DNA of 64,000 bases from Chloroflexota bacterium (GTDB lineage Bacteria > Chloroflexota > Anaerolineae > DTLA01). The translations under genes and the position numbers were made by a program. Positions 1 through 19,241 of the stretch are shown in pieces (position 1 is the stretch's first letter; each line of letters begins with the position of its first letter). The DNA is taken from positions 55,955 to 119,954 of the forward strand of contig JADBJK010000015.1 in the NCBI GenBank assembly GCA_014874485.1, written 5' to 3'. Under the pieces are notes generated by a model. That model worked only from the letters and a program-made list of their open reading frames with translations, was not told the origin of the DNA and did no database searches.

Positions 1-678
1 GCGGTGAAGAAATTCGCCCAGTACAAGGTGGGGCGGCTGCCGGTGGTGAACGAGCATGGCGACCTGGTCGGCATCCTGACGGGCGGCGACATCACCCGCG
101 GCCTGCTGGAAGCCATCGGGCTGGACTATCACGCGGAGGAGATCAGCCGCTACCGTGCGCGACACATCTTTGAAGACATCGTATCGGACCAGACCGGCCT
201 GATCCTGCGCTACCACATCAAGCCGCGGGACTTCACCGGCGGGGGGAGCGCGTCCAGCAAGATCAAGCGGGCGCTGGATCGGCTGGGGGCCCCGCCGCTG
301 ATTCAGAGGCGGGTCGCCATCGCCGCCTACGAGGCGGAGATGAACCTGATTATCCATACGGACAACGGCGGCGAACTGATCGCGGAAATCCAGCCGGAAG
401 TCATCCGAATCGTCGCGACGGACAACGGCCCGGGCATCGCCGACATAGAGCAGGCCATGCAGCCCGGGTTCTCCACCGCGCCGAACTGGATTCGCGAACT
501 GGGGTTCGGGGCCGGCATGGGACTGGCGAACATCAAGAAATGCTCCGATTCCATGAAATTGGAGTCGCAGGTCGGCGTGGGCACGCGGCTGGAAATCGTC
601 ATCCGAATCCAGCCCGTCATGAGCAGCGGGAACGCCGCGCGACCCTCTGAAGGACAACAGAAACAGGAGACCTCGTGA
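1..678 (+). CDS. CBS-domain / histidine-kinase-like ATPase (HATPase_c, RsbW/anti-sigma-kinase-like) regulatory protein; probably 5'-truncated by the window edge
   Basis: The ORF at 4..678 has a CBS-like N-terminus (GRLPVVNEHGDLVGILTGGDI) followed by HATPase_c G1/G2 boxes (ATDNGPGI, GFGAGMGLANI). Only about one CBS repeat is present, so the gene likely continues upstream of the window. Confidence 0.6.
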   Translation, partial: AVKKFAQYKVGRLPVVNEHGDLVGILTGGDITRGLLEAIGLDYHAEEISRYRARHIFEDIVSDQTGLILRYHIKPRDFTGGGSASSKIKRALDRLGAPPLIQRRVAIAAYEAEMNLIIHTDNGGELIAEIQPEVIRIVATDNGPGIADIEQAMQPGFSTAPNWIRELGFGAGMGLANIKKCSDSMKLESQVGVGTRLEIVIRIQPVMSSGNAARPSEGQQKQETS

Positions 679-1031
679 TCGCACTAGCCGAGATTGTGCA
701 GAAACTCAACCTGGAAGTCGTGGGGAGCGCCGAGAATCTAGACCGCCGCGTCGTCGCCGGTTACGCGTCGGATTTGCTCAGTTGCGCCATGAACCGTGCC
801 AAGAAGGACTACGTCTGGGTTACGCTGCAGTCGCACGCCAACGTGGTCGCGGTGGCGAGCCTGCTGGACCTGGCCGCCGTCATCATCACCGAGGGCAACC
901 GCCCCGACGACGAGACCATCGCCCGCGCGGAGAGCGAAGGCGTCTGCCTGCTGCTCACGCCCAAGACGACGTTCACCGTCGTGGGCGAGTTGACGGCCCT
1001 CGGCGTCCGCGGCGAGCCGGAGCAGCCGTAA
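675..1031 (+). CDS. DRTGG-domain protein
   Basis: The 118-aa product is small and glycine-rich with an ...VVAGYASDLLSCAMN... core typical of DRTGG proteins. Its stop overlaps the upstream HATPase gene (ATGA coupling). Confidence 0.55.
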   Translation: MIALAEIVQKLNLEVVGSAENLDRRVVAGYASDLLSCAMNRAKKDYVWVTLQSHANVVAVASLLDLAAVIITEGNRPDDETIARAESEGVCLLLTPKTTFTVVGELTALGVRGEPEQP

Positions 1032-1048
1032 CGACGGCACGGGAGCCC

Positions 1049-1807
1049 ATGCTGCGGCCGATTCTGGCGGATTTGCACATTCACACAGTGCTCTCGGCGT
1101 GCGCCGAGGTGGAGATGATCCCGCCGCTCATCGTCCGGCGGGCGTGCCGCCTGGGGCTGGGCCTCATCGCGGTAACCGACCACAACGCTTGCGCCAACGC
1201 CGAGGCCGTCATACGCGCAGCCGAAGGGACCGGCCTGGCCGTGCTGCCGGGCATGGAACTCCAGACCCGCGAGGAGGTGCACCTGCTCTGCCTGTTTGAC
1301 ACGGTGGAGCAGAGCCTGGCGTGGCAGGCGGAGGTATGGAGCCTGCTGCCGCCGCTGGAGAACCGCGAGGAGTTCTTCGGCCCCCAGTACGTGGTGGACG
1401 CCGAAGGCCAATGGGTGCGCACCGAGGGGCGGCTCCTGGCGGCATCGGCGGACATCGCTCTGGAGCAGGCCATCGCCAGGGTGCACGCGCTGGGCGGGCT
1501 GGCGATACCGGCGCACGTGGACAGGCCGTCCTTCAGCCTGCTGGCGAACCTGGGCATGGTGCCGGCGAACCTCGGCGCGGACGCGCTGGAGGTTACGGCC
1601 CGGTTCCAGCCGGAGGCAGGTTTCGCCCAGTGGCCGGAGTTGCGCGGGTGGCCGCTTGTCGTGGACGGCGATGCGCATACGTTGAACGACATGCAGAACC
1701 GCACCCTGTTCAAGGTGGCTGCGCCGACCGTTCGCGAACTCTCACTAGCCCTTCGGGGCGCGGAAGGTCGCAAAATCACGGTGGACTGGCACCCAACGAA
1801 ATCGTAG
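1049..1807 (+). CDS. PHP-domain (polymerase/histidinol-phosphatase-like) metal-dependent phosphoesterase
   Basis: The product has an ADLHIHTVLSACA...VTDHN... PHP N-terminal histidine motif. The annotated start is the internal ATG at residue 90 of track ORF 782..1807; the upstream part of that ORF is a low-complexity Arg/Pro-rich artefact overlapping the DRTGG gene. Confidence 0.65.
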   Translation: MLRPILADLHIHTVLSACAEVEMIPPLIVRRACRLGLGLIAVTDHNACANAEAVIRAAEGTGLAVLPGMELQTREEVHLLCLFDTVEQSLAWQAEVWSLLPPLENREEFFGPQYVVDAEGQWVRTEGRLLAASADIALEQAIARVHALGGLAIPAHVDRPSFSLLANLGMVPANLGADALEVTARFQPEAGFAQWPELRGWPLVVDGDAHTLNDMQNRTLFKVAAPTVRELSLALRGAEGRKITVDWHPTKS

Positions 1808-1828
1808 AACTTCAAGGAGGAAAGTCGC

Positions 1829-2299
1829 ATGAGCCAACCTGAAACCCTGGATCTAGCACCGCTGGACGAAGTCATTGACGAATTCGCCGGGAAGAGTGGG
1901 GCCCTGATCCCAATCCTGCAACGGGCTCAGGACATCTTCGGCTATCTTCCGCCAGAGGTGCTCAAACACATCGCGGAGCGCACCCGCACACCCCTCAGCC
2001 AAGTGTATGGCGTGGTAACGTTCTACGCCCAGTTCTACCTGACGCGCCGCGGGAAGTACATCATCCGCCAGTGCGACGGGACCGCGTGCCACGTGCGCGG
2101 CGCGGCCAAGATCATTGACGCCGTGGAGCGCGAACTGGGCATCCGCGCGGGCGAGACCTCGCCCGACTACAAGTACACCTTTGAAGTCGTCTATTGTCTG
2201 GGTTCCTGCGGATTGTCGCCGGTGGCGGTCATCAACGACAAGGTGCACGGCCGCCTGACGCCGGAGCAGATGATCCGCACCATCCGTGAGTTGAAGTAG
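1829..2299 (+). CDS. hoxE: NAD(P)-linked hydrogenase diaphorase subunit HoxE (NuoE-like, thioredoxin-like [2Fe-2S])
   Basis: The 156-aa product has the NuoE/24-kDa subunit Cys pattern (CDGTACHVRG...CLGSCGLSP). An RBS (GGAGGAAAG) lies upstream. Confidence 0.8.
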   Translation: MSQPETLDLAPLDEVIDEFAGKSGALIPILQRAQDIFGYLPPEVLKHIAERTRTPLSQVYGVVTFYAQFYLTRRGKYIIRQCDGTACHVRGAAKIIDAVERELGIRAGETSPDYKYTFEVVYCLGSCGLSPVAVINDKVHGRLTPEQMIRTIRELK

Positions 2300-2301
2300 G
2301 C

Positions 2302-2856
2302 GTGCGAGAACTCTCCCTTCACGTGCTGGATGTGATGGAGAACGCCATTGAGGCAGGGGCCACGCGCATTGAGGTGCGCATTGACGAGGACCTGGGAGCG
2401 GATCGCTTGACCATAGAGGTTGCCGACAACGGGCGAGGGATGAGCAAGGAGATGACGCAGCGGGTTCTGGACCCCTTCTTCACGACGCGGAAGACGCGCC
2501 ACGTGGGGTTGGGGCTTCCGCTGTTCGCTGCGGCTGCCCGCCGCTGCGATGGCGACCTCACCATTGAGTCGGAGCCGGGAAAGGGGACGCGGGTCAGGGC
2601 CACGTTTCGGCACAGCCATATTGACCGGGCCCCGCTCGGCGATATGCCCTCGGCGCTCATGGCGGTTCTCCTGTCGGGGCGGCCCGTGGACCTGGCCTAC
2701 GTGCACCGTGTTGGCGAGGCCGAGTTCGCCTTTGACTCGGCGGAGGTCCGGCGCGAACTGGGCGAGGTCCCGCTGACGCATCCGGCGGTGCGCCAATGGC
2801 TGTGGCAGACACTGCGCGAAGGGGAGGAGAGCCTTCGCACCAAGCCGTCGGACTGA
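2302..2856 (+). CDS. Small stand-alone histidine-kinase-like ATPase (HATPase_c only)
   Basis: It has a GTG start, an N box (ENAIEAGAT), G1 (DNGRGM), G2 (GLGLPL) and GKGTRV. No sensor or DHp domain is present. Confidence 0.65.
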   Translation: MRELSLHVLDVMENAIEAGATRIEVRIDEDLGADRLTIEVADNGRGMSKEMTQRVLDPFFTTRKTRHVGLGLPLFAAAARRCDGDLTIESEPGKGTRVRATFRHSHIDRAPLGDMPSALMAVLLSGRPVDLAYVHRVGEAEFAFDSAEVRRELGEVPLTHPAVRQWLWQTLREGEESLRTKPSD

Positions 2857-2910
2857 TTTTCCAACCCATGCAGTGAGCAATGACAACCGGCAAAGCGAGG
2901 AGGTGGCAGA

Positions 2911-3294
2911 ATGCCCAAGATCAAGAGTTTGGAGGAACTCAAGAAGATTCGGGAGGAGGCGCAGAAAGACCTCAGAGTCCGCACCGAAACCGGCACCCGC
3001 ATCATCATCGGCATGGGCACGTGTGGCATTGCCGCCGGCGCGCGCGATGTGATGCACGCCATCCTCAACGAACTGGCGCGCAGGGACATTGAGGCCCATG
3101 TGGAGACGGTGGGATGCATCGGCATGTGCGCGAAGGAGCCCCTGGTGGACATTGAGCAGGCGGGAAAGCCACGGGTTACCTACGCCAACGTAACGCCCGA
3201 CATGGTGCCCCGCCTCATTGAAGAGCACCTGGTGAAGGGCCGCGTCGTCCAGGAGTGGGCGCTGGGCCGACTGGATTCCAAGGGCATCCAGTAG
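2911..3294 (+). CDS. Thioredoxin-like [2Fe-2S] ferredoxin (HndB-like)
   Basis: The 127-aa product has the IGMGTCGIAAGA...GCIGMCAKEP Cys motif. The same fold recurs at the N-terminus of both NuoF-like proteins in this window. Confidence 0.7.
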   Translation: MPKIKSLEELKKIREEAQKDLRVRTETGTRIIIGMGTCGIAAGARDVMHAILNELARRDIEAHVETVGCIGMCAKEPLVDIEQAGKPRVTYANVTPDMVPRLIEEHLVKGRVVQEWALGRLDSKGIQ

Positions 3295-3373
3295 GCGTGC
3301 TGGATTCTGAGACCGATACAACACCACCCATGAGCGTTTCACCGTAGACTGAGAAGACAAGGAGGAATCCGAT

Positions 3374-6300
3374 ATGGCCGAACCATTCTACAGGGCCAAC
3401 GTGCTGGTATGCGGCGGGACCGGATGCACGGCGTCCGGGTCGGCAGAGGTCATCACGGCCATGGAGGCGGAGATCAAGCGCCGCGGCCTGCAGAACGAGG
3501 TGCGGCTGGTGCAGACCGGCTGCCGCGGCTTCTGCGCCATGGGGCCTGTGATGATCGTTTACCCCGAAGGCATCTTCTACTGCCAGGTGCAGGCCAGCGA
3601 TGTGCCCACCATCGTGGAAGAGACCCTGGTCAAAGGGCGTGTCGTCCAGCGACTCACGTACCAGGAGCCGGAGACGCACAAGGCCCTGCCGTTCTACAAA
3701 GAGATTCCGTTCTACAGCAAGCAGATTCGCATTGCCCTGCGCAACTGCGGCATGATTGACCCCGAGAAGATAGAGGAGTACATCGCGCGGGGCGGCTACG
3801 AGGCGCTATCCAAGGCCCTGACCAGCATGACCCGCGAGGAGGTCATTGAGGAGGTCAAGCGGTCCGGGCTGCGCGGGCGAGGCGGTGCGGGCTTCCTCAC
3901 GGGCGTCAAGTGGGAGTTCACCGCCAAGGCCCCCGGCGACGTGAAGTACGTGGTGTGCAACGCCGACGAGGGCGACCCGGGCGCGTTCATGGACCGCTCC
4001 ATCTTGGAAGGCGACCCCCACAGCGTCATTGAGGGCATGATCATCTGCGGGTACGCCGTGGGCGCGAAAGAGGGGTACATCTACTGCCGCGCCGAGTACC
4101 CGCTGGCCATCAAGCGCCTGAAGACGGCCATCGCCCAGGCCGAGGAGTACGGCCTGCTGGGCGATCACATCATGGGCACCGACTTCAGTTTCCACCTGCA
4201 CATCAAGGAGGGCGCGGGCGCGTTCGTCTGCGGTGAGGAGACCGCGCTCATCGCGTCCATTGAGGGCCGCCGTGGCGAGCCGCGCCCCAGGCCGCCGTTC
4301 CCCGCCGTGTCGGGCCTGTGGGGCAAGCCCACCAACCTGAACAACGTCAAGAGTTACGCCAACATCCCGCAGATCATCGTCAACGGCGCCGAGTGGTTCA
4401 GCAACATCGGCGCGAAGCGAAGCCCGGGCACGGCCATCTTCGCGCTGACCGGCAAGGTGAACAACACCGGCCTGGTGGAAGTGCCCATGGGCATCACCCT
4501 GGGCGAGATCATCTTTGACATCGGCGGCGGCATCCCCAGAGGCAAGAAGTTCAAGGCCGTCCAGACCGGCGGGCCTCTTGGCGGCTGCATCCCGGCCCAG
4601 CACCTCAACGTCAAGGTGGACTTTGACTCGCTCAAGGAAGTGGGCGCGGTCATGGGTTCGGGCGGCATGATCGTCGTGGACGAAGACACCTGCATGGTGG
4701 AGTTCTCCAAGTTCTTCCTGACCTTCGCCCAGGCGGAATCGTGCGGCAAGTGCGTCCCCTGCCGCGTGGGCGGCAAGCGCATGCTGGAGATTCTCACCCG
4801 CATCACCGAGGGCAAGGGCAAACTGGAGGACCTGGACACCATCCGCGAGATCGCCAAGGGCATGGAGACCGGCGCGTTGTGCGCCCTGGGCCAGTTGACG
4901 CCCGGCCCGGTGATGGCCGCCCTGCGCTACTTTGAGGACGAGTTCCGCGCCCACATCCTGGACAAGGAATGCCCGGCCGGAACCTGCAAAGCGCTGGTGC
5001 GGGCGCGCTGCATCAACGCCTGCCCGTCCGAGGTGGACGTGCCGGCCTTCGTGGCGCTGACCGCCCAGGGGCGCTACCAGGAGGCGCTGGACATCCACCG
5101 CGAGCGCAACCCGTTCCCGCTCATCTGCGGGCGCGTGTGCCCGGCCTTCTGCGAGCAGAAGTGCCGCCGCGGCGACGTGGACGAGCCGGTGGCGCTGCGC
5201 CAGGTCAAGCGGTTCATGGCCGACCAGGAGAAGGACCATCCGTGGACGCCACCGAAGAAGGAAGGCCCCAAGGACAAGAAGGTGGCCGTCATCGGCGCGG
5301 GCCCCGCAGGGCTGACCGCGGCGCTGCGCCTGGCCCAGTTGGGCTATCCCGTTACCGTCTTTGAGAAACTGCCGGTTGCGGGCGGCATGATGGCGGTGGG
5401 CATCCCCGAATACCGCCTGCCGCGCGACATCCTGAACATTGAGATTGAGAACATCAAGCGGGCCGGGGTGGAGATTCGCCTGAACCAGGAGATGGGCCGC
5501 GACTTTACCATGGATGACCTGATGAACGGCATGGGCTACAGCGCCGTCGTGCTGGCCATCGGCGCCCACAAGAGCCGCAAACTGGGCATCCCGAACGAGG
5601 ACCTGCCCGGCGTGTACCACGGCGTGAATTTCCTGAAGGACGTGGCCCTGGGCAAGAAGCCGGACCTGAGGGGCAAGCGCGTGGCCGTCGTGGGCGGCGG
5701 CGCGGTTGCCGTGGACGCGGCGCGCACGGCCCTGCGGCTTGGCGCGAGCAAGGTGCATCTCATCTACCGCCGCACGCGGAGCGAGATGCCGGCCTGGGAA
5801 GAGGAAGTCCACGCCGCGGCGCTGGAAGGCATCCAGTTCCACTTCCTGACCAACCCGGTGGAGGTGATCGGAACCGACCACGTAACCGGCGTGAAACTCC
5901 AGGCGCAGCAGTTGGGCGAGTTTGACGCCAGCGGCCGCCGCAAGCCCGTCCCGATTGAGGGGTCCGAGTTCGTGCTGGACGTGGACCTGCTGATACCGGC
6001 CATCGGACAGGCGCTGGCGGTGGAGTGCCTGGACTCCTGCGGCGACATCAGTTTCAACCGCGACGGCACCATCACCGTCGGGCCGGACCTGGCGACGACC
6101 CGCGAGGGCGTCTTCGCGGCGGGCGACGCGGCCCTGGGGCCTGCCACCGTCGTGGAAGCCGTGGCCCAGGGCAACAAGGTGGCCGTGGCCGTGGATGCGT
6201 ACCTCAAGGGCCAGAAGGTGGAGCGGCCCAAGTACGTAACCGGGTACCACGAGGTGCCGCAGGTGTTCAACATGGACGACTACGCCGACGCCAAGCGGCC

Positions 6301-6481
6301 TCAGATGCCCGAATTGCCCGTTGAAGAGCGCATTTGCTGCTTTGACGAAGTGGAACTCGGGTTTGACGAAAAGACCGCCCGCGAAGAGTGCAAGCGTTGC
6401 CTGCGCTGCGACCTGGAATGGGTAGAGACCATGGGCGTGGAAGCGGTTACGCAGGCGGATAAAGACGCGGTCCCGGCATAG
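3374..6481 (+). CDS. hoxF: HoxF-like NAD(P)H-binding diaphorase subunit (NuoF 51-kDa homologue) fused C-terminally to a GltD/NfnB-like FAD-NAD(P)H oxidoreductase domain
   Basis: The 1035-aa product has an N-terminal thioredoxin-like 2Fe-2S domain and a NuoF core (GRGGAGFLTGVKWEF, CGKCVPCR 4Fe-4S). These are followed by a GltD-like 2x[4Fe-4S] region (CINACPSEVDVP...CGRVCPAFCEQKC), a Rossmann FAD/NAD(P) site (VAVIGAGPAGLTAA and VAVVGGGAVAVD) and a C-terminal Cys cluster (CKRCLRCD). The RBS is AAGGAGGAATCC. Confidence 0.8.
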   Translation: MAEPFYRANVLVCGGTGCTASGSAEVITAMEAEIKRRGLQNEVRLVQTGCRGFCAMGPVMIVYPEGIFYCQVQASDVPTIVEETLVKGRVVQRLTYQEPETHKALPFYKEIPFYSKQIRIALRNCGMIDPEKIEEYIARGGYEALSKALTSMTREEVIEEVKRSGLRGRGGAGFLTGVKWEFTAKAPGDVKYVVCNADEGDPGAFMDRSILEGDPHSVIEGMIICGYAVGAKEGYIYCRAEYPLAIKRLKTAIAQAEEYGLLGDHIMGTDFSFHLHIKEGAGAFVCGEETALIASIEGRRGEPRPRPPFPAVSGLWGKPTNLNNVKSYANIPQIIVNGAEWFSNIGAKRSPGTAIFALTGKVNNTGLVEVPMGITLGEIIFDIGGGIPRGKKFKAVQTGGPLGGCIPAQHLNVKVDFDSLKEVGAVMGSGGMIVVDEDTCMVEFSKFFLTFAQAESCGKCVPCRVGGKRMLEILTRITEGKGKLEDLDTIREIAKGMETGALCALGQLTPGPVMAALRYFEDEFRAHILDKECPAGTCKALVRARCINACPSEVDVPAFVALTAQGRYQEALDIHRERNPFPLICGRVCPAFCEQKCRRGDVDEPVALRQVKRFMADQEKDHPWTPPKKEGPKDKKVAVIGAGPAGLTAALRLAQLGYPVTVFEKLPVAGGMMAVGIPEYRLPRDILNIEIENIKRAGVEIRLNQEMGRDFTMDDLMNGMGYSAVVLAIGAHKSRKLGIPNEDLPGVYHGVNFLKDVALGKKPDLRGKRVAVVGGGAVAVDAARTALRLGASKVHLIYRRTRSEMPAWEEEVHAAALEGIQFHFLTNPVEVIGTDHVTGVKLQAQQLGEFDASGRRKPVPIEGSEFVLDVDLLIPAIGQALAVECLDSCGDISFNRDGTITVGPDLATTREGVFAAGDAALGPATVVEAVAQGNKVAVAVDAYLKGQKVERPKYVTGYHEVPQVFNMDDYADAKRPQMPELPVEERICCFDEVELGFDEKTAREECKRCLRCDLEWVETMGVEAVTQADKDAVPA

Positions 6482-6528
6482 CGCGGGCGCGATTCTACGC
6501 AACCAACGGAAAGGAGGCGACTTGCCCG

Positions 6529-8244
6529 ATGGCAACCGTCAACATCAAAATCAACGGACAACAGATTCAGGCGCGGGCGGGGGCCACGCTTCTGGAGGCG
6601 GCAAAAGAGGCGGGGATTGACATCCCCACCCTGTGCCACCACCCTGCCCTTGCCAACATCGGCGCGTGCCGCGTTTGCCTGGTGGAAGTGGCGAAGCAGC
6701 GCACACTCCAGCCCGCCTGCACCTTCCCCATCTCCGAGGGCATGGAAGTGGAGACCGAGTCGCCCAAGGCGGTGGAGGCGCGCAAGTTCGTCCTGGAGAT
6801 GCTCTTCTCCGAGCGCAATCACTACTGCATGTACTGCGAGATGAGCGGCGACTGCGAACTCCAGGCGCTGGCGTACCGCTACGGCCTGGACCACTGGACC
6901 TATCCCTCGCCGCACGCCAAGATGCCGGTGGACGGCACGCGCAAGTACTTCATCATGGATCACAACCGCTGCATCCTGTGCCGGCGCTGCATCCGTGCGT
7001 GCTCGGACCTGGTGGCGAACCACACGCTGGGCGTGCGCTTCCGCGGCGCCAAGACCATGATCAGCGCCGACATGGACGTGCCCTTCGGCGACTCCACGTG
7101 CGTGTCGTGCGGCACCTGCCTGCAGGTCTGCCCCACGGGCGCGCTGGTGGACCGCAAGAGCGCTTACATGGGCCGCGAGGTGCACGTAGAGCACACGGCC
7201 AGCGCATGCACGTTCTGCGCCGTGGGGTGCGGGACCAGCGTCGTTACACGCGCCGGGCATGTCCTGCGCGTGGAGGGCGACTGGGACGCACCCAACCAGG
7301 GCGTGCTGTGCGTAGCGGGGCGCTTTGAACCGCTCTACGACCGCCGCGAGCGGATCACCTCGCCCATGTTGCGCAAGGGCAACGGCCTTGTGCCCGTCTC
7401 CTGGGACGAGGCGCTGGGCGCCATCGCCGCCAAGGCGAAGGGCAACAGCGGCAAGAAGGCCGCGGCCTACGTTACCGGCAAGGCTCTCAACGATACGCTG
7501 GGCGAGTTCCTGAGGGTGTTCCAGGGGAAGATGCAGGCCACCGTTGGCACCGTGGAGCCGACGCTGGCGGACCTGGACCTGCCGGTGGGCGGCTCGCTGG
7601 CCGATGTGGACGCGGCCGACTGCATCCTGGTGGCGGGCGGCGATCCGCTGGCCACGCACCGCGTGCTCGGCTACCGCGTCAAGCGCGCCCTGGACAAAGG
7701 CGCTCGGCTGCTGGTGGTTACGGACAAGCCCAACGGCATGCTGCCCCTCGCGCACCGGAAGTTCGGCATGGCCCAGTTGGACGAGGCCGTGAAGGTCTGC
7801 CAGGGCAGCGCCGCGCCGGTGGTCATCTACGGTGGCGACCTGGACAAGGCCAGCGCCCGGAAACTGGCGACGCTGGTGGGCAAGGCCCGCTTCATCCCGC
7901 TGTTCCCCGCCAGCAACGGCTACCGAGCCAGGGAACTGGGTCTGAAGAACGGCTTCAGCGCCAATGGGCTCAAGGTGCTCTACCTGCTGTTGGGCGACGC
8001 AGAACTGCCCGACGAGGCCGTGAAGGAAGCGCGGCGGGCGGCATTCCTCGTCGTCCACGCCGCCTACAAGTCCGCGGCCACCGACGTGGCCGATGTGGTG
8101 CTGCCGGCTCCGCTGTGGTACGAGCAGGAGGGGAGTTTCACCGCCCTGGACGGCAGGAAAGTCGCCGTCAAGCCGGCGGTCGCCGCGCCCGAGGGTATGC
8201 TTGCCGAGGCCGCTGTCCTTGCCCGGCTGGCAGAGCGCCTGTAG
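6529..8244 (+). CDS. hoxU: HoxU-like iron-sulfur diaphorase subunit (NuoG 75-kDa homologue, extended C-terminus)
   Basis: The 571-aa product has an N-terminal 2Fe-2S ferredoxin fold (CHHPALANIGACRVC) and NuoG-type 4Fe-4S motifs (CILCRRCIRAC, CVSCGTCLQVCPTGA). It is longer than canonical HoxU because of a NuoG-like C-terminal domain. Confidence 0.75.
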   Translation: MATVNIKINGQQIQARAGATLLEAAKEAGIDIPTLCHHPALANIGACRVCLVEVAKQRTLQPACTFPISEGMEVETESPKAVEARKFVLEMLFSERNHYCMYCEMSGDCELQALAYRYGLDHWTYPSPHAKMPVDGTRKYFIMDHNRCILCRRCIRACSDLVANHTLGVRFRGAKTMISADMDVPFGDSTCVSCGTCLQVCPTGALVDRKSAYMGREVHVEHTASACTFCAVGCGTSVVTRAGHVLRVEGDWDAPNQGVLCVAGRFEPLYDRRERITSPMLRKGNGLVPVSWDEALGAIAAKAKGNSGKKAAAYVTGKALNDTLGEFLRVFQGKMQATVGTVEPTLADLDLPVGGSLADVDAADCILVAGGDPLATHRVLGYRVKRALDKGARLLVVTDKPNGMLPLAHRKFGMAQLDEAVKVCQGSAAPVVIYGGDLDKASARKLATLVGKARFIPLFPASNGYRARELGLKNGFSANGLKVLYLLLGDAELPDEAVKEARRAAFLVVHAAYKSAATDVADVVLPAPLWYEQEGSFTALDGRKVAVKPAVAAPEGMLAEAAVLARLAERL

Positions 8245-8278
8245 CAGCCGTGTAACGAGGATAAAAGGAGGATAATCC

Positions 8279-8818
8279 ATGGCGAAAGTCAAGGTTGCAA
8301 CAGATTGGCTGGCCGCGTGCGCAGGGTGCCACATGTCCGTGCTGGACATGGACGAGCGGCTCGTCCAACTGCTGGACAAGATAGAACTCACGTCCACGCC
8401 CATCACCGACCTGAAGCACCCACCGAAGGAGGGCGTTACGGTCGGGATTCTCACGGGCGCTATCTCCAACACGACCAACATTGAGGTCGCCAAGCAGATG
8501 CGCGAGCGCTGCCAGATTCTCATCGCGCTGGGCGACTGCGCGGTGTTCGGCGGCATCGTAACCATGCGCAACTTCTTTGACATGAACGAGGCCCTGAAAC
8601 GCGCCTACGTGGAGACCGAAAGCACCGTGGACGGCAAAATCCCCTGCTCGGAGGAACTGGGGAGGCCGGTGCGGGTGTGCGCGGTCAACCAGGTGGTCAA
8701 GGTGGACATCCACATTCCGGGATGCCCGCCGTCGCCGGACGCCATCTACTACGCCCTGTCCGAGTTGTTGGAGGGCCGCATCCCCGTCCTGACCGGCGAC
8801 AACCTGAAGTATGACTGA
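8279..8818 (+). CDS. hoxY: [NiFe] hydrogenase small subunit, NAD-reducing type (HoxY)
   Basis: The 179-aa product carries CAGCHMS, GDCAVFGG and GCPP motifs for the proximal 4Fe-4S cluster. The RBS is AAGGAGGATAA. Confidence 0.85.
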   Translation: MAKVKVATDWLAACAGCHMSVLDMDERLVQLLDKIELTSTPITDLKHPPKEGVTVGILTGAISNTTNIEVAKQMRERCQILIALGDCAVFGGIVTMRNFFDMNEALKRAYVETESTVDGKIPCSEELGRPVRVCAVNQVVKVDIHIPGCPPSPDAIYYALSELLEGRIPVLTGDNLKYD

Positions 8819-8868
8819 CGGTCATGCCCGCCAGGTCCAGGATTTGACCCTAGACAAGGAGCGCAACC

Positions 8869-10290
8869 ATGCAAAAGATCACGATAGAACCCGTAACGCG
8901 AATTGAGGGCCACGCCAAGGTTACCATCCACCTGAACGACGAGGGCAAGGTGGAGCGGGCCTTCTTCCACGTGAACGAGTGGCGTGGGTTTGAGAAGTTC
9001 AGCGAGGGGCGGCCCTTCTTTGAGATGGTTCAGATCACCCCGCGCATCTGCGGCATTTGCCCGGTGAGCCATCACCTGGCGTCGGCCAAGGCGTGCGACC
9101 GCGTCGCGGGGGTCGAACCGCCCAGGACGGCCAAACTCCTGCGCGAACTGATGCACATGGGGCAGTTCATCCAGTCCCACTCCATGCACTTCTTTGAACT
9201 GGCGGGGCCAGACCTGCTGCTGGGGTTTGACGCGGACCCCGCCATCCGCAACGTGGTGGGCATCGTCCAGGCGAACCCCGACCTGGCGCTGAAGGCGGTG
9301 CGCCTGCGCGGGTTCGGCCAGGACATCATCAAGCGCCTGGGCGGCAAGCGCGTGCACCCGGTCTTCGCCGTGCCCGGCGGCGTCAACGCGCCCCTGTCCG
9401 TCAAGGACCGCGACGCCATCCTGAGCCAGGTGGACGAGATGACCGAGGTCATCAAGACCGGCATCGCCATCGGCAAGCAGTGGTACGAGGCCAACATGGA
9501 CCTCGTCAACCAGTTCGCCGTGTTCCCCTCGTCCTACATGGGGCTGGTGGACGAGGAGGGCGGCCTGCAACTGTACGAAGGCAAGGTGCGGCTGGTGGAC
9601 AAGGACGGCCGGAAACTGGAGGAGTTTGACGCCCAGGACTACCTGACGTACATCGGCGAGCACGTGGAAGACTGGTCGTACCTGAAGTTCCCCTTCTACC
9701 GCAAGATGGGCTGGCCCAACGGCACGTACCGCGTTGGCCCGCTGGGGCGGCTGAACGCTGCTACCAAGATCAACACGCCCATGGCCAACGAGGAGTTCAA
9801 GGTCTGGAAGTCCATCAACGGCGGCAAGCCGGTGGAAGGCACCCTGTGGTTCCACTACGCCCGCCTGATAGAGGACCTGTACGCCATGGAGCGCGTCCGC
9901 GAGATTCTGGAGGACCCCGACATCCTGTCCACGGACATCGTCGCGGATTCCACGGGGTTCGTGGGCCAGGGCGTCGGGTGCGTGGAGGCTCCGCGCGGGA
10001 CTCTGTTCCACCACTACCAGACCGACGCCAACGGCATGCTGACCAAGGTCAACCTCATCGTCGCCACAGGCCACAACAACTGGGCGATGAGCAAGTCGGT
10101 GGAGATGGTGGCCAAGGCGTTCGTGGACGGCACCAAGTTGACGGAAGGGATGCTGAACCGCGTGGAGGCGGCCATCCGCGCCCACGACCCGTGCCTGTCG
10201 TGCTCTACCCACGCCGTCGGGGCCATGCCCATCGTGATTGAGATGTACGGCCCGGATGGCGCACTGGTGCACCGCCTGACCCGCGACTAG
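8869..10290 (+). CDS. hoxH: [NiFe] hydrogenase large subunit, NAD-reducing type (HoxH)
   Basis: The N-terminal Ni-binding motifs RIEGH and RICGICPVSH are present. The C-terminal DPCLSCSTH is followed by a 24-aa extension, the substrate for endopeptidase cleavage. Confidence 0.9.
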   Translation: MQKITIEPVTRIEGHAKVTIHLNDEGKVERAFFHVNEWRGFEKFSEGRPFFEMVQITPRICGICPVSHHLASAKACDRVAGVEPPRTAKLLRELMHMGQFIQSHSMHFFELAGPDLLLGFDADPAIRNVVGIVQANPDLALKAVRLRGFGQDIIKRLGGKRVHPVFAVPGGVNAPLSVKDRDAILSQVDEMTEVIKTGIAIGKQWYEANMDLVNQFAVFPSSYMGLVDEEGGLQLYEGKVRLVDKDGRKLEEFDAQDYLTYIGEHVEDWSYLKFPFYRKMGWPNGTYRVGPLGRLNAATKINTPMANEEFKVWKSINGGKPVEGTLWFHYARLIEDLYAMERVREILEDPDILSTDIVADSTGFVGQGVGCVEAPRGTLFHHYQTDANGMLTKVNLIVATGHNNWAMSKSVEMVAKAFVDGTKLTEGMLNRVEAAIRAHDPCLSCSTHAVGAMPIVIEMYGPDGALVHRLTRD

Positions 10291-10317
10291 AACTTTACCA
10301 CAGAGAAAATTGGCTGC

Positions 10318-10469
10318 TGTCATTGCGAGCGAAGCGAAGCAATCTCACGCCCTATCTGTCATGCTGAGCGAAGCGAAGCATCTCGGTTGGCGAGATTCTT
10401 CGCGGCTGGGCCGCTCAGAATGACAATCTACCGGGATTGCTTCGGGCGCTGCGCGCCCTCGCAATGACA
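10318..10469. mobile_element. MITE-like element, copy 1 (152 bp; 12-bp terminal inverted repeats TGTCATTGCGAG / CTCGCAATGACA)
   Basis: The termini are a perfect inverted pair. Inside is a nested inverted pair GTCATGCTGAG...CTCAGAATGAC, and the same architecture recurs at four or more other loci in this window. Confidence 0.7.
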
Positions 10470-10521
10470 AACTATCAAGAATCCCTGTGGCAAAATACGA
10501 GGCGGATAGCCGAGGAATCCC

Positions 10522-10563
10522 GCAGACCTCCGAGGGCCTTCCCGACCTCGGAGGTCTGCTTTT
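10522..10563 (+). terminator. Rho-independent terminator downstream of hoxH
   Basis: A 14-bp perfect stem (GCAGACCTCCGAGG...CCTCGGAGGTCTGC) is followed by a CTTTT tract. Confidence 0.6.
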
Positions 10564-10589
10564 GACGCCCTGGCCCCGTGGGATACAAT
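10562..10589 (+). promoter_or_regulatory. Sigma70-like promoter for the hoxW-hyp operon (TTGACG-N16-TACAAT)
   Basis: The hexamers lie immediately after the terminator T-tract, 58 nt upstream of hoxW. Confidence 0.4.
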
Positions 10590-10646
10590 AGCCAGGACAA
10601 CGCAAAGACGCGCTGAGACGTTCACGGGCGCGCTGGGACTGGACGG

Positions 10647-11132
10647 ATGAGACGGACCCTGGTCATCGGATACGGGAACCCCTACCGCCGCGACGACGGC
10701 GTGGCGTTGCACGTCGCCAACCTCTTGCGGGCGGAGCAGGGGCTGCGACCTCTGGCCCTGGACGAAGACGGCCTGGATGCGTGCGGCCATCCCCTGGACA
10801 CGGTGGTGCTCCACCAGTTGCTGCCCGAAATCGCGCCCATGCTGGCCGACTACGACCTGGTCGTGTTCGTGGATGCCCACACCGGCGTAATACCGGATGA
10901 CGTCCGCGTGCTGCCCGTGCAGGAGGAGTACGGCTTCCAGGCGGTTACCCATCACATGAGCCCGGGCATGATGCTGGCGCTGGCGCGGGCAGCGCGGGGT
11001 CGGGCGCCGGATGCCGCGCTGGTCTCCATTCGGGGCGAGGACTTTGATTTCGGCGAGGGCCTGTCGGCGGGGTGCAAGGCTCGCGCGGATGCGGCCGCCC
11101 GCGCCATCCTGGACATGGCCGGCAGGGAGTAG
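10647..11132 (+). CDS. hoxW: Hydrogenase maturation endopeptidase (HoxW/HycI family)
   Basis: The product has the GYGNPYRRDDGVALHV signature (GxGNxxxxDDGxG) and is 161 aa long. Confidence 0.85.
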   Translation: MRRTLVIGYGNPYRRDDGVALHVANLLRAEQGLRPLALDEDGLDACGHPLDTVVLHQLLPEIAPMLADYDLVVFVDAHTGVIPDDVRVLPVQEEYGFQAVTHHMSPGMMLALARAARGRAPDAALVSIRGEDFDFGEGLSAGCKARADAAARAILDMAGRE

Positions 11133-11138
11133 GTCGCC

Positions 11139-11480
11139 GTGCACGAACTGCCCGTTACCGAGCAAATCCTCAAGGTCGTGCTGGATCACGCGCGCAAGGC
11201 GGAGGCGCACCGCGTCGTGCACGTCAACCTCGTCATCGGCGACCTGACCACGTTCGTGGACGAGAGCATCCAATTCTACTTTGATTTCCTGTCGCGCGGG
11301 ACCGAGGCGGAGGGCGCGACCCTGCACATCCGCCGCATTCCGGCCCGCGTGCGGTGTCATGCCTGCGGCGGCGAGTTCGCGCCCGACGGCGTGGACTGGC
11401 GCTGCCCCCACTGCGGCGGCCTGGGCGGGGAAGTGCTCGCGGGCCGCGAGTCGTACATAGAGAGCATTGAGGTGGAATAG
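11139..11480 (+). CDS. hypA: Hydrogenase nickel insertion protein HypA
   Basis: The N-terminal MHE motif and the Zn site CHACGG...CPHCGG are present; the product is 113 aa. Confidence 0.85.
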   Translation: MHELPVTEQILKVVLDHARKAEAHRVVHVNLVIGDLTTFVDESIQFYFDFLSRGTEAEGATLHIRRIPARVRCHACGGEFAPDGVDWRCPHCGGLGGEVLAGRESYIESIEVE

Positions 11481-11485
11481 CCCCC

Positions 11486-12151
11486 ATGAAGAAAGTGGAA
11501 GTCGTAACCGACATCATGAGTGCCAACGACCAGATCGCCCAGGAGAACGCCGAAACCCTCCGGGCGCATGGCATCCTCACGGTGAACCTGATGGCATCGC
11601 CCGGGGCCGGCAAGACCAGCCTCATCCTGGAGACCGCGCGGGCGCTTGACGGCCGCCTGCGCCTGGGCGTGATTGAGGGCGACGTGGCCTCGCGCATTGA
11701 CGCGGACAAGGTCGCCGCCGCGGGGATTCCCGTGGTGCAGATCAACACCGGCGGCGCGTGCCACCTGGACGCGCCCATGATCCGCCAGGCGCTCCGCGCG
11801 CTCCCGCTGGACGAGATAGACCTGCTCATCGTGGAAAACGTCGGCAACCTCATCTGCCCGGTGGAGTTTCGCCTGGGCGAGACGCTGCGCGTCATGATCG
11901 CCAGCGTGCCCGAAGGCCACGACAAGCCCTACAAGTACCCGGGCATCTTCACGGCAGTGGAGGCCGTCGTCATCAACAAGATGGATTTGGCCCCCTACGT
12001 GGACTTTGACCTGGGCGCGCTGCACGAGGCCATACGGGGCATGAACCCGCGCGCCGAAATCTTTGAGGTCTCCTGCCGCACGGGCGAAGGCATTGGCCGA
12101 TGGGCCGAATGGCTCTGGGCGCAGTGGCAGGCGTATCGGCCGGCGAAGTAG
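11486..12151 (+). CDS. hypB: Hydrogenase nickel incorporation GTPase HypB
   Basis: The product has a P-loop (ASPGAGKTS) and a CH metal motif (GGACHLD), and is 221 aa long. Confidence 0.85.
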   Translation: MKKVEVVTDIMSANDQIAQENAETLRAHGILTVNLMASPGAGKTSLILETARALDGRLRLGVIEGDVASRIDADKVAAAGIPVVQINTGGACHLDAPMIRQALRALPLDEIDLLIVENVGNLICPVEFRLGETLRVMIASVPEGHDKPYKYPGIFTAVEAVVINKMDLAPYVDFDLGALHEAIRGMNPRAEIFEVSCRTGEGIGRWAEWLWAQWQAYRPAK

Positions 12152-12172
12152 GGGGAGAGGGCGGTCCCGGAC

Positions 12173-14560
12173 ATGGCCTCGGTTGTCGCCAATCGGTTCA
12201 AGGTAACCGGCGTGGTGCAGGGGGTGGGTTTCCGCCCCTTTGTGTACGGCCTGGCGGTGGGGCTGGGGCTGCGCGGCTGGGTCATCAACACGTCGTCGGG
12301 CGTGGTGATTGAGGTGGAAGGCCCGCCCGATGCCCTGGATGCCTTCGCGCGCGACCTGGTGGCGAAGGCCCCGCCCGTGGCGCGCATAGAGACCGTGCAG
12401 CGGGAGGAGATTCCGCCCAACGGCTGGGAGCGGTTTGAAATCCGCGAGAGCCGGGCCGAGGCTGGGTACGTGCTCATCTCGCCGGACATCGCCACCTGCC
12501 CCGAATGCCTGCGCGAACTGTTTGATCCCAACGACCGCCGCTACCGCTATCCGTTCATCAACTGCACCAACTGCGGGCCGCGTTTCACCATCATCGCCGA
12601 CGTGCCTTACGACCGGCCCCTGACCACCATGGCCGCGTTCCAAATGTGCCCGGAATGCCAGGCCGAGTACGATGACCCGCTGAACCGCCGATTCCACGCG
12701 CAGCCCAACGCCTGCCCCGTGTGCGGGCCGCGGGTGTGGCTTGTGCCCGCTTCGGCGCAGGACGCCGAGGCGCTGACCCCGCCCGCGGGCGACCCGGCCA
12801 ACGCCGAGGTGCTCGCCGAGGCAGCGCGCTTGCTGCGGGGAGGCGCCATCCTCGCCATCAAGGGCCTGGGCGGGTTCCACCTGGCCTGCGATGCGACCAA
12901 CCCCGACGCAGTGCGCACGCTGCGGGAACGCAAGCGCCGCCCGGCGAAGCCCTTGGCGGTGATGATGGCCTCGCTGGACGAGGTGCGCCAGCATTGCGAG
13001 ATCACGCCCGACGAGGAGGCGCTCCTGACCTCGCGCCAGTGCCCCATCGTCCTGCTGGAGTGGAAGCGCGACTCCACAGTTGTGGAGGAGGTGGCGCCGA
13101 ACAACCGCTACCTGGGCGTGATGCTCCCCTACACGCCGCTGCACCATATTCTGCTCCGCGACGCCGGGCGGCCGCTGGTCATGACGAGCGGCAACCTGTC
13201 GGAGGAGCCTATCGCGCAGGACAACGAGGAGGCCTGGCGTCGGCTGCGCGGCCTGGCCGATTGGTTTCTGCTCCACAACCGGGCCATCTACGCCCGCTAC
13301 GATGACAGCGTCTGGTTTGTGCCGCGCGTCCCCGACGGCAAGGCGGGTGCCGAGTCGGTGCCCCAGCCGCTGCGCCGCTCGCGGGGCTACGCGCCGTATC
13401 CCGTGCGCCTGCCCTTCCGCGCCCGCACGGTGCTGGCCACCGGCCCGGAACTCAAGAACACCTTCTGCATCACCCGCGACGAGCATGCCTTCGTTAGCCC
13501 CCACATCGGCGACATGGAGAACCTGGAGACGCTGGAGCACTACGAGACGGCCATGGGCCTCTACGAGCGGCTGTTCCGCCTGCGGCCTGATGCGATAGCC
13601 TGCGACCTGCACCCCGACTACCTGGCGACGCGCTACGCCCACGAGCGGGCCGAGCGGGAGCGCCTGCCCCTCATCGGCGTGCAGCACCACCACGCCCACA
13701 TCGCGGCGTGCATGGTGGACAACGGTATCACCGAGCCGGTCATCGGCGTGGCCCTGGACGGCACGGGGTACGGCCTGGACGGGCGAATCTGGGGCGGCGA
13801 GTGGCTGGTCGCCGACCTGCGCGGGTTCCGCCGCGCCGCGTGGCTGGAGCCGCTCCCGCTCCCCGGCGGCGACGCGGGCATCCGCAACCCGTGCCGCATC
13901 GCGTATGCGTACCTGCATGCGCTGTTCGGCGAAGTCCCCGCGCTGCCCTTCCTGGCGCAGATGGACGAGGCCGAAATCGCCGCCGTGCAGCGGCAGGTGG
14001 AGCGCGGCCTGAACACCGTTCTGACCACGTCCTGCGGCCGGCTGTTTGACGCCGTCGCAGCGATGGCCGGCGGGCGGGGCCGCGTTACCTACGAGGCGCA
14101 GGCGGCCATTGAGATGGAGATGGCATCGGAGGGCGACGAGGGCGACCCCTACGGGTACTTCTTCCGCTGGGCGGAGCCGCTCGCCTGGGGGAACACGGAT
14201 GCCTTGCCCCCGCTGGCCTGCGCCTTTGAGGTCGCCCTGAAGCCGCTGCTGGCGGGCGTCGTGCGCGATGTCCAGGCCGGGCGGATGCTGGGCGAAGTGG
14301 GCGGGCGCTTCCACCGCACGCTGGCGAACATGATCGCCGACCTGTGCTGCATGATCGCGCAGGGCACCGGCCTCGCGACGGTGGCCCTGTCGGGCGGGTG
14401 CTTCCAGAACCGCCTGCTGCTGGAACAGTCGGTGGGCGAACTCCGACGGCGCGGGCTGCGCGTGCTGCTGCACCGCCAGGTTCCGGCCAACGACGGCGGC
14501 GTGTCGCTGGGCCAGGCGGCCATCGGCCACTTTGCCCTTGAGGAGGGGCGGGCGCGATGA
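12173..14560 (+). CDS. hypF: Carbamoyltransferase HypF
   Basis: It contains an acylphosphatase domain (VQGVGFRPFVY), two CxxC...CxxC zinc fingers, and YrdC and Kae1-like domains, for 795 aa in total. Confidence 0.9.
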   Translation: MASVVANRFKVTGVVQGVGFRPFVYGLAVGLGLRGWVINTSSGVVIEVEGPPDALDAFARDLVAKAPPVARIETVQREEIPPNGWERFEIRESRAEAGYVLISPDIATCPECLRELFDPNDRRYRYPFINCTNCGPRFTIIADVPYDRPLTTMAAFQMCPECQAEYDDPLNRRFHAQPNACPVCGPRVWLVPASAQDAEALTPPAGDPANAEVLAEAARLLRGGAILAIKGLGGFHLACDATNPDAVRTLRERKRRPAKPLAVMMASLDEVRQHCEITPDEEALLTSRQCPIVLLEWKRDSTVVEEVAPNNRYLGVMLPYTPLHHILLRDAGRPLVMTSGNLSEEPIAQDNEEAWRRLRGLADWFLLHNRAIYARYDDSVWFVPRVPDGKAGAESVPQPLRRSRGYAPYPVRLPFRARTVLATGPELKNTFCITRDEHAFVSPHIGDMENLETLEHYETAMGLYERLFRLRPDAIACDLHPDYLATRYAHERAERERLPLIGVQHHHAHIAACMVDNGITEPVIGVALDGTGYGLDGRIWGGEWLVADLRGFRRAAWLEPLPLPGGDAGIRNPCRIAYAYLHALFGEVPALPFLAQMDEAEIAAVQRQVERGLNTVLTTSCGRLFDAVAAMAGGRGRVTYEAQAAIEMEMASEGDEGDPYGYFFRWAEPLAWGNTDALPPLACAFEVALKPLLAGVVRDVQAGRMLGEVGGRFHRTLANMIADLCCMIAQGTGLATVALSGGCFQNRLLLEQSVGELRRRGLRVLLHRQVPANDGGVSLGQAAIGHFALEEGRAR

Positions 14561-16651: not shown

Positions 16652-16673
16652 GGCCCACAGGCCCGCGCTCACC

Positions 16674-16702
16674 TTGACGCGGCCCGCATTTGGTCGTATA
16701 AT
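16674..16702 (+). promoter_or_regulatory. Strong sigma70-like promoter (TTGACG-N17-TATAAT) for the fds operon
   Basis: The consensus hexamers have ideal spacing, about 190 nt upstream of fdsG. Confidence 0.55.
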
Positions 16703-16890
16703 GCGTTTACTTCGCCATTGCATTGGAGAGAACCCGCCATGTTGTGCAACGCAGCCAGCATGATGTGTGGAAAGCATCCTCATCCGTTCGGCATCCCCAC
16801 ACCTGGCTCCAGTTCGGCGTCCATATCCAGCGGCTGCCCGTTGCCCATGTGCGGCCGCTGCTGCAGAATCGCCCCTGAAAGGAGGTCGCC

Positions 16891-19210: not shown

Positions 19211-19241
19211 CCACGGTTCTCGGATGGAAGGAGACGCAGAC

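Follow-up and report, generated by a model that had tools for sequence, protein, structure and literature searches.

A CBS-containing version of an accessory gene cassette beside a bifurcating-type [NiFe] hydrogenase in a Chloroflexota bacterium: a candidate signaling switch

In fermenters, syntrophs, and acetogens, the balance of H2, formate, and NAD(P)H/ferredoxin is set by bifurcating hydrogenases and formate dehydrogenases of the Bfu type, whose control is hardly understood. The closest described gene sets are found beside group-D putatively sensory [FeFe]-hydrogenases (HydS) and in the operon of the Acetomicrobium mobile NiFe-HydABCSL enzyme. Carere et al. (2012) classed group D as sensory and suggested a regulatory relationship, the 2020 and 2026 TamHydS papers proposed a sensing role for group-D HydS beside kinases and stated the signaling route as open, and Cthe_0339 is simply annotated in the literature as a histidine kinase. 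The purified A. mobile enzyme consists of five subunits only, encoded by Anamo_1675-1678 and 1681 (Feng et al., 2022), which leaves two extra genes between hydC and hydB; HisK, HydD, and HydP are named in the operon, and a role in regulation and/or maturation was assumed. In the literature searched (subscription papers lay outside its scope), there were remarks on gene neighborhoods, and no report was found that tied DRTGG or PHP proteins to hydrogenases or tested the function of these genes. Here, we describe a cassette of such genes at the 5' end of a 64,000-nucleotide stretch of a Chloroflexota genome (GenBank assembly GCA_014874485.1, contig JADBJK010000015.1, positions 55,955 to 119,954; the whole stretch is termed the window), which also has two extra genes between hydC and hydB. 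The cassette genes encode a CBS-containing kinase, a DRTGG protein (DRTGG-b), a PHP-family phosphoesterase, and a stand-alone GHKL ATPase (HATP); these reading frames and domains, embedded in a hydrogenase operon, had been recognized in a preliminary description made from the letters alone, and Pfam and NCBIfam agreed with them.

With moderate confidence, we interpret these genes as the CBS-input version of a widespread accessory signaling set of Bfu-type electron-bifurcating oxidoreductases, acting as a signaling switch. In hundreds of anaerobic species, the cassette accompanies NADH/ferredoxin-linked bifurcating hydrogenases and formate dehydrogenases and probably switches them according to a metabolic signal. 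Its full form consists of DRTGG-a, a SpoIIAB-like Ser/Thr kinase, a sensor, DRTGG-b, a PHP phosphoesterase, and the MutL-like GHKL ATPase HATP. The kinase reading frame of the window is already open at base 1, so the gene is truncated by the window edge, and a locus from a Chloroflexota metagenome-assembled genome (MAG), L001 (~90% protein identity), was used as a proxy for the part of the cassette lying 5' of the window; no contig matched the window HATP exactly, and a protein 100% identical to the window DRTGG was traced to a Logan contig of only 3.9 kb. The full-length CBS-CBS-kinase has 327 amino acids (aa) in L001 and 322 to 327 aa in L001 and the more distant L002, and in both loci one further DRTGG gene (DRTGG-a) lies upstream of the kinase, giving DRTGG-a, CBS-kinase, DRTGG-b, PHP, (HydC), and HATP as the full cassette.

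One genome per GTDB species was scanned with the HATP lid motif DPFxTTRTTR, which gave at least 600 matches, and 80 species-level loci were taken; HATP proteins of wider diversity varied too much to serve as a query for loci, and the use of this subset biases the sample to family members with that lid motif. The loci were annotated with hidden Markov models built from the window's own proteins and with H-cluster motifs, and features were counted within 9 kb of HATP in the 44 loci that had at least 5 kb to its left and at least 7 kb to its right. NuoE and NuoF were both present in 37 of these 44 loci, DRTGG and PHP in 36, kinase together with DRTGG and PHP (with HATP, all four accessory types) in 29, and a hydrogenase catalytic subunit, [FeFe] or [NiFe], in 24. 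Because the loci were picked by HATP alone, the linkage to NuoE/NuoF was not built in, and by our estimate NuoF would lie within 9 kb of a random gene in ~1% of cases; the gene arrangement is far beyond chance. Thirteen of the 37 NuoF-linked loci had no hydrogenase, seven of them having a formate-dehydrogenase-like subunit, and the cassette therefore tracks the NuoE/NuoF (Bfu) flavoprotein module and not hydrogenases in themselves. Co-occurrence with hydrogenases, which had been proposed as a check on these genes, was found across phyla, as part of this broader association. The claim that the same genes flank [FeFe] bifurcating hydrogenases and are uncharacterized there agreed with both the locus annotation and the literature.

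Synteny was kept across at least six phyla and four enzyme types, the partner enzymes being [FeFe], [NiFe], formate-dehydrogenase-like, and GltD-type, and the carriers included Bacillota, Chloroflexota, Desulfobacterota, Nitrospirota, Acidobacteriota, Armatimonadota, and Deferribacteres. The gene order of the window recurred in L001, in L002, and in a deltaproteobacterial MAG (L003) that, like L002, is more distant than L001. In two further deltaproteobacterial MAGs with CBS-kinase cassettes (L036 and L065), four or five unrelated genes stood between the kinase and DRTGG-b, including in L065 a Complex1_49kDa/NuoD-like gene (6802-7674), which indicates that the cassette can be split. A kinase-less core (DRTGG, DRTGG, PHP, and HATP) was located directly downstream of rex in six loci, L022 (6789-9546), L024, L026, L038, L046, and L071, with no NuoE/NuoF within 9 kb; in several Clostridia loci, the context of this core was ValS-FolC-x-Rex-cassette-Maf-MreBCD. 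The rex gene also adjoined full cassettes in L014, L055, L032, and L070.

The cassette differs among lineages in its putative sensor. When unlabeled neighbors were clustered, 35 loci proved to have a sixth cassette gene, which lies after the kinase and before DRTGG-b. Its product, of ~440 aa, contains two [4Fe-4S] motifs, Fe_hyd_lg_C, and a C-terminal four-Cys PF04060 domain, and its consensus includes SSSCP (with the proton-relay Cys lost), ISPCPAK, and E..aC..GC.GG; in these features, it matches the published description of the group-D/M2e sensory [FeFe]-hydrogenase HydS. Kinases beside HydS were short (~150 aa, HATPase_c_2 only), whereas kinases without it were mostly long and had a CBS pair. 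Of 54 loci, 16 encoded a CBS-kinase and 38 a short kinase; the HydS-like gene was present in 33 of the 38 and missing from the other 5, and none of the 16, nor the window, had it, so that no locus combined both inputs (Fisher p ~1e-9, not corrected for phylogeny). The CBS form was found mainly in Chloroflexota and in two deltaproteobacterial MAGs. HydS and the CBS pair may be read as two alternative inputs to the same kinase, a natural swap which argues that the kinase is the signal entry point, and the window, where a CBS pair takes over from HydS beside a [NiFe] Bfu enzyme, shows a new type of input for a cassette already noted in the literature. In two Terriglobia MAG loci (L030 and L033, about 5000-18000), a group-D [FeFe]-type sensor belonged to a cassette on a [NiFe] Bfu hydrogenase, where the [FeFe]-type sensor would appear to serve a [NiFe] enzyme.

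Of the CBS part of the kinase, only the end lies in the window (a PF00571 fragment at aa 1-36, which closes CBS2). The CBS pair was seen whole in 15 long kinases, that of L001 and 14 others, and kept the G-h-h-[S/T]-x-x-D motifs of tandem CBS domains, with conserved GiiSiedl and GilT.GD, which we take to be the ribose/phosphate-contacting motifs of Bateman modules. Since the sensor in the window is a CBS pair, the signal in this genome is probably an adenosine-containing metabolite rather than H2. The kinase domain matched HATPase_c_2 (PF13581; 30.3 bits, cut-off 27.4), the SpoIIAB family TIGR01925 (4e-14; 52.6 bits, below the family cut-off of 135), and the SpoIIAB structures 1L0O/1TIL (~4e-7). 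It keeps the N-box E-x-E-x-N, DxGPGI, and GFGAGMGL motifs, and E53, E55, N57, D83xG85PG87, and G110FGAGMG116 were at least 94% conserved among 53 homologues.

The four accessory genes had previously been proposed as a candidate partner-switching or phospho-regulation module, and one of the four defining features of such modules was found, a HATPase_c_2 anti-sigma-type kinase with ATP boxes. The cassette has no STAS antagonist and no PP2C phosphatase, the phosphoesterase being a PHP protein (PF02811), and no sigma-factor or DNA-binding gene recurred among the clustered neighbors in 84 loci, where the recurrent neighbors were HydS-like, Rex, FolC, ValS, and HisS genes. With three of the four features failing, the label is usable as an analogy only.

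HATP is the accessory gene most tightly tied to NuoE/ferredoxin/NuoF; it is encoded between hydC and hydD, and in L002 its frame overlaps both neighbors. The family (~180 aa) gave 3004 matches at E<=1e-5 among 90%-identity clusters, the top 120 all being at least 67% identical, and 305 clusters (50% identity) at E<=1e-30, with ~70% identity across phyla. A Bergerat fold is followed by a ~80-aa C-terminal alpha/beta extension (AlphaFold2 model with a predicted local distance difference test score of 93.5). Residues D10, N14, D42, G44, G46, P58, T61, G69, G71, G84, D108, P111, and G113 were invariant among 47 diverse members, and the ATP-binding set includes the acidic D10 four positions before the Mg-binding N14, D42xG44xG46, and the Gly-rich lid end G69xG71. 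ATP-binding motifs were thus kept on alignment in both HATPase proteins. The earlier classification of HATP as kinase-like held for these motifs and gave way in other respects: its closest structural neighbors are GHL proteins (MutL, Hsp90, and GyrB), not the catalytic and ATP-binding (CA) domains of kinases, and it has no HisKA or dimerization and histidine phosphotransfer (DHp) domain. Pfam gave no HisKA match in either HATPase protein, HATP starting straight at the CA helix, and no receiver-domain gene recurred among the clustered locus neighbors, one case being seen in L064.

Directly past the ATP-binding domain of HATP, at window positions 2614-2643 (aa 105-114), lies the sequence S-H-I-D-R-A-P-L-G-D, which is similar to the H-box S-H-E-L-R-T-P-L. 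Within this motif (S-H-I-D-R-x-P-L-G-D), the three residues D108, P111, and G113 are the invariant ones, whereas several members have N or S at the position of the His. Since the His is not conserved, HATP was not taken, as a general reading, for a circularly permuted histidine kinase with SHIDRxPL after the CA domain.

HATP is not a stable enzyme subunit, to judge from two purifications. The A. mobile enzyme purifies as five subunits despite the presence of HisK and HydD in its operon, and when Kelly et al. expressed hydC-tte0891-hydD-hydB-hydA in Escherichia coli, with Tte0891 termed hypothetical, a pull-down with His-tagged HydC recovered HydA-D only.

DRTGG-b is always encoded directly upstream of the PHP gene, and a Gly-rich strand-to-helix loop, (G-G-Y-x-S-)D-L-[LM]-S, is common to the paralogues DRTGG-a and DRTGG-b, as is an invariant Thr. 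The PHP protein matched PDB entries 7UG9 and 3E0F and, in NCBIfam, showed weak similarity to TrlF, CehA, RNase RNM, and the phosphatase of adenosine 3',5'-bisphosphate (pAp), every one below its cut-off. Its His/Asp/Glu metal-ligand motifs are kept, with H12, H14, D46-H47-N48, E72, H80, H158, and D210-x-H212 at least 98% conserved among 66 homologues. In PHP enzymes, the Asp of the S-D-G that follows HxH is a metal ligand; at window positions 1097-1108 (aa 17-20), this usual S-D-G is replaced by S-[P/A]-C, the Cys being 98% conserved in the same 66 homologues, and the metal site may be altered or thiol sensitive. Natural fusions included PHP to HATP without a linker (L010, L077, P0124, and P0131) and DRTGG-a to the kinase (L014 and L055), which nominate these as predicted interacting pairs. 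A phage-defense reading of the PHP and GHKL pair was dropped because PADLOC reported no defense system, its sole match being a marginal one to PHP (E=0.0019).

In the proposed mechanism, the sensor would set kinase activity, responding to H2 or redox state through HydS in most lineages and to an adenosine-containing ligand through the CBS pair here. The kinase and the PHP protein would oppose each other on a cassette protein, either DRTGG-a/DRTGG-b (with their invariant Ser36/Thr50) or HATP, and HATP would be an ATP-driven switch that binds transiently to the NuoE/HydD/NuoF module and alters its activity or assembly state. Control would most likely be post-translational, with transcription left to other regulators such as Rex; the tuning of hydrogenase activity to energy charge that had been suggested earlier is a candidate reading only. 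Several points weigh against a signaling switch of this kind. Phosphotransfer by the kinase and contact between HATP and the hydrogenase are both steps that we infer, and the sensor-swap statistic is confounded by phylogeny, the CBS form being mostly from Chloroflexota. Of the 44 well-flanked loci, 6 had HATP with NuoE/ferredoxin/NuoF alone and no cassette nearby, and 7 had a cassette without NuoE/NuoF nearby, several of these being kinase-less and beside rex and cell-shape genes. HATP resembles MutL/GyrB, which are ATP-hydrolyzing GHL clamps, more than kinases, histidine kinases included; DRTGG is not STAS-like, and the conserved loop GG-Y-x-S-D-L-L-S might serve instead to bind a ligand (phosphate); and among characterized proteins, those nearest to the PHP protein are phosphoesterases of nucleotides/RNA rather than protein phosphatases. 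Finally, the CBS ligand could equally be S-adenosylmethionine, diadenosine tetraphosphate (Ap4A), NAD(H), or cyclic di-AMP as AMP/ADP/ATP.

A general modular post-translational gate is a tentative proposal and, taken whole, an unlikely one. HATP would clamp the HydC/HydD/HydB junction, the presumed place of bifurcation gating, and switch the enzyme on or off or between modes, the kinase and PHP would set HATP via DRTGG adaptors, and the input would be interchangeable, HydS reading H2 and the CBS pair reading adenylates. The leading rival explanation, itself improbable, is that the cassette proteins are maturation or repair factors that help to assemble NuoE/NuoF/HydD, load their cofactors (flavin mononucleotide [FMN] and Fe-S), or reactivate them, with HATP as a GHL chaperone or clamp and PHP acting on a nucleotide or flavin phosphoester. 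HATP does have MutL, Hsp90, and GyrB as neighbors, its gene lies inside the structural operon between hydC and hydD, its absence from the purified enzyme is how an assembly factor would behave, the PHP relatives act on nucleotides, and Feng et al. assumed maturation and/or regulation. A sensory hydrogenase or CBS pair together with a SpoIIAB-like kinase, however, are components of signaling and not of assembly; E. coli yielded active Caldanaerobacter enzyme without the upstream cassette, though with tte0891 present; and many Bfu operons, including a second one in the window, have no cassette genes.

More doubtful is transcriptional control, in which the SpoIIAB-like kinase would be an anti-sigma factor or anti-regulator that alters expression of the hydrogenase operon, possibly with Rex. 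The homology of the kinase to anti-sigma F, the position of the cassette directly beside rex in several Clostridia loci, and the regulatory relationship suggested by Carere et al. are consistent with this explanation. Against it, no sigma factor, DNA-binding domain, or STAS protein was found in the cassette across the 84 loci, the rex-adjacent cassettes have no kinase, HATP is plausibly linked in translation to the structural genes, and a Rex-operator pattern (TGTGA-N6-8-TCACA, which may be too strict) occurred in just 3 of the 84 loci. A lower probability again is given to a nucleotide-messenger circuit without protein phosphorylation, in which PHP would hydrolyze a nucleotide such as pAp, Ap4A, or short phospho-oligonucleotides, CBS and DRTGG would bind the messenger, and the kinase-like proteins would be nucleotide switches. 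The best characterized PHP relatives are RNase RNM/YciV and a 3',5'-bisphosphate nucleotidase, CBS and DRTGG co-occur in a CBS-pyrophosphatase regulated by adenine nucleotides and Ap4A, and DRTGG has its Gly-rich strand-to-helix loop; yet no PHP similarity reaches its family cut-off, the SpoIIAB-type catalytic set is complete in the kinase, with the E-x3-N base, and the PHP-HATP and DRTGG-kinase fusions point to protein-protein partnerships. That the genes are hitchhikers with no role in the adjacent enzyme is hardly credible given the synteny across phyla and enzyme types, the fusions, the overlapping or near-abutting frames, and the HATP identity between phyla.

The cassette will be no surprise to hydrogenase genomicists, and what is gained is that a widely distributed and well-defined question becomes directly testable. 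For the question of control, the parts are now defined: five or six genes with intact catalytic motifs that occur in at least 600 species. If the module gates bifurcating enzymes, then it would offer a means of engineering the yields of H2 and ethanol in its carriers Clostridium thermocellum, Caldicellulosiruptor, and Thermoanaerobacter. The gate proposal, if true, would in addition define a new type of phospho-relay, with DRTGG for STAS and PHP for PP2C, and the first known direct regulator of flavin-based electron bifurcation.

In the window, the cassette and hydrogenase genes are closely packed. The stop codon of the kinase (TGA, 676-678) overlaps the start of DRTGG-b (GTG, 675-677) within GTGA at 675-678, HATP starts 2 nucleotides (nt) past the NuoE stop, and the remaining intergenic gaps are 17-54 nt with Shine-Dalgarno-like GGAG runs. 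The translational coupling previously claimed for the whole set is therefore strictly shown at the kinase/DRTGG junction and plausible at the NuoE/HATP junction. No plus-strand terminator-like site was found from base 1 to 10537; the first lies at 10538-10556 and is followed by a promoter-like site (10562-10589) and then by hyp genes. A single transcription unit for the cassette and hydrogenase genes is weakly suggested.

The enzyme had first been given Hox names (HoxE/HoxF), which did not survive comparison with solved structures. The best solved relative of the large subunit is 7T2R_D, from the A. mobile NiFe-HydABCSL enzyme (1.3e-178), and aa 5-543 of HydB matched 7T2R_B best in the PDB (2.2e-260); from these relatives, the window hydrogenase is assigned by homology to the NiFe-HydABCSL (Bfu/HydABC) type, not the cyanobacterial Hox type. 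The NuoG-like HydA, NuoF-like HydB, NuoE-like HydC, and [NiFe] small and large subunits share one operon, which is the NiFe-HydABCSL composition. The best matches of HydB aa 545-1031 were 9N5U_A (NfnA) and the large subunits of 9BOV (9BOV_A) and 8OH5. This GltD/NfnA-like C-terminal extension of ~490 aa was common to L001-L003, L005, L009, and L012, and the HydB fusion also occurred with [FeFe] partners (L016, L018, and L051). Such a fusion points to a hydrogenase that would carry its own NADPH site and stand between NiFe-Hyd and Nfn/Stn-type Bfu enzymes as a hybrid.

Table 1. Genes of the cassette, the adjoining hydrogenase, and the second Bfu-type cluster in the window
Feature	Position	Strand	Basis
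CBS-pair and SpoIIAB/RsbW-like Ser/Thr kinase, 3' 225 codons	1..678	+	PF00571, HATPase_c, HATPase_c_2, TIGR01925
DRTGG-b, 118 aa, single domain	675..1031	+	PF07085, 31.6 bits
PHP-family metal-dependent phosphoesterase, 252 aa	1049..1807	+	PF02811, 32.7 bits
HydC/NuoE/HoxE-like [2Fe-2S] subunit of Bfu flavoprotein module, 156 aa	1829..2299	+	PF01257, 1e-49; NF005747 HoxE, 6e-44
HATP, stand-alone GHKL ATPase, 184 aa	2302..2856	+	HATPase_c PF02518, 76 bits
HydD-like small thioredoxin-like [2Fe-2S] ferredoxin	2911..3294	+	PF01257, 27.4 bits; NF041612; adjoins HATP in most loci
HydB (NuoF-like FMN subunit) fused to GltD/NfnA-like NAD(P)H-FAD domain, 1035 aa	3374..6481	+	Pfam domain series
HydA-like NuoG-type Fe-S subunit without H-cluster	6529..8244	+	Fer2_4, NADH-G_4Fe-4S_3, Molybdop_Fe4S4, Molybdopterin
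[NiFe] hydrogenase small subunit	8279..8818	+	PF01058, 1.5e-30
[NiFe] hydrogenase large subunit	8869..10290	+	PF00374
Second cluster, NuoE-like	16891-17358		Follow-up annotation
Second cluster, HydB-like	17351-19210		Follow-up annotation

Two other features of the window were recorded. An open reading frame of 161 aa (10647-11132) lies between hoxH and hypA, 3' of the terminator-like and promoter-like sites; it had no Pfam match at 1e-5 and begins VIGYGNPYRRDDGVALHV, which we take to resemble a hydrogenase maturation endopeptidase motif. In addition, a second Bfu-type cluster (16891-21953) is located ~6 kb downstream, past the hyp genes, and has no HATP or cassette of its own. An in-frame TGA (20292-20294, in the context DHCARL-TGA-HSS), the classic selenocysteine site, interrupts the gene for its formate dehydrogenase alpha subunit.

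Individual parts of the cassette have counterparts in well-described proteins. Compared with the GHL ATPases MutL, GyrB/ParE, TopoVI-B, and Hsp90, HATP is small, at 184 aa, and lacks an N-terminal strap and a normal-sized transducer domain; it has no DNA-related context, and its DPFxTTR lid motif is of the histidine-kinase type. The CBS and DRTGG domains that form the regulatory CBS-DRTGG-CBS insert of CBS-pyrophosphatase (Tuominen 2010; PDB 3L2B/3L31) are in the window on separate proteins, tied to a kinase and a redox enzyme. The cassette shares with the partner-switching modules SpoIIAB-SpoIIAA-SpoIIE and RsbW-RsbV-RsbU/P a HATPase_c_2 Ser/Thr kinase with E-x3-N, G1, and G2 boxes, together with small single-domain alpha/beta proteins and a phosphoesterase encoded alongside the kinase, but neither the DRTGG fold nor the PHP fold is related to STAS or PP2C, and no sigma factor is included. 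Control of a hydrogenase by a sensor and kinase-type proteins is also the logic of Cupriavidus HoxBC-HoxJ-HoxA and of group-C HydS with PAS and PP2C/kinase proteins (Zheng 2014); unlike these, the cassette has no PAS domain, DHp histidine kinase, or response regulator. The sister cassettes of the window use a sensory hydrogenase, as those H2-sensing systems do, whereas the window uses a CBS pair.

The nearest gene arrangements are those named at the outset. The group-D (M2e) HydS neighborhood located before trimeric HydABC (TTE0887-0894, Cthe_0335-0342, and Csac_1857-1864; Calusinska 2010, via Carere 2012; Land 2020) has the same order of kinase, DRTGG, PHP, and HATP genes, and its accessory genes, like those of the window, are ahead of NuoE-HATP-ferredoxin-NuoF. 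The papers speak of "a histidine/serine kinase" and an "AraC regulator" without mention of the DRTGG/PHP/GHL set. The window differs from this neighborhood in that a HydS-like gene is missing, a CBS pair is present on the kinase instead, and the catalytic partner is a [NiFe] hydrogenase. The A. mobile NiFe-HydABCSL operon is similar to the window in the two additional genes between hydC and hydB, one of them called HisK and neither present in the purified enzyme; from its name and position, HisK may be a HATP homologue. Unlike the A. mobile protein, the HydB of the window bears an additional GltD/NfnA-like domain, and in the window a CBS-kinase/DRTGG/PHP set stands upstream of the NiFe-HydABCSL-type genes.

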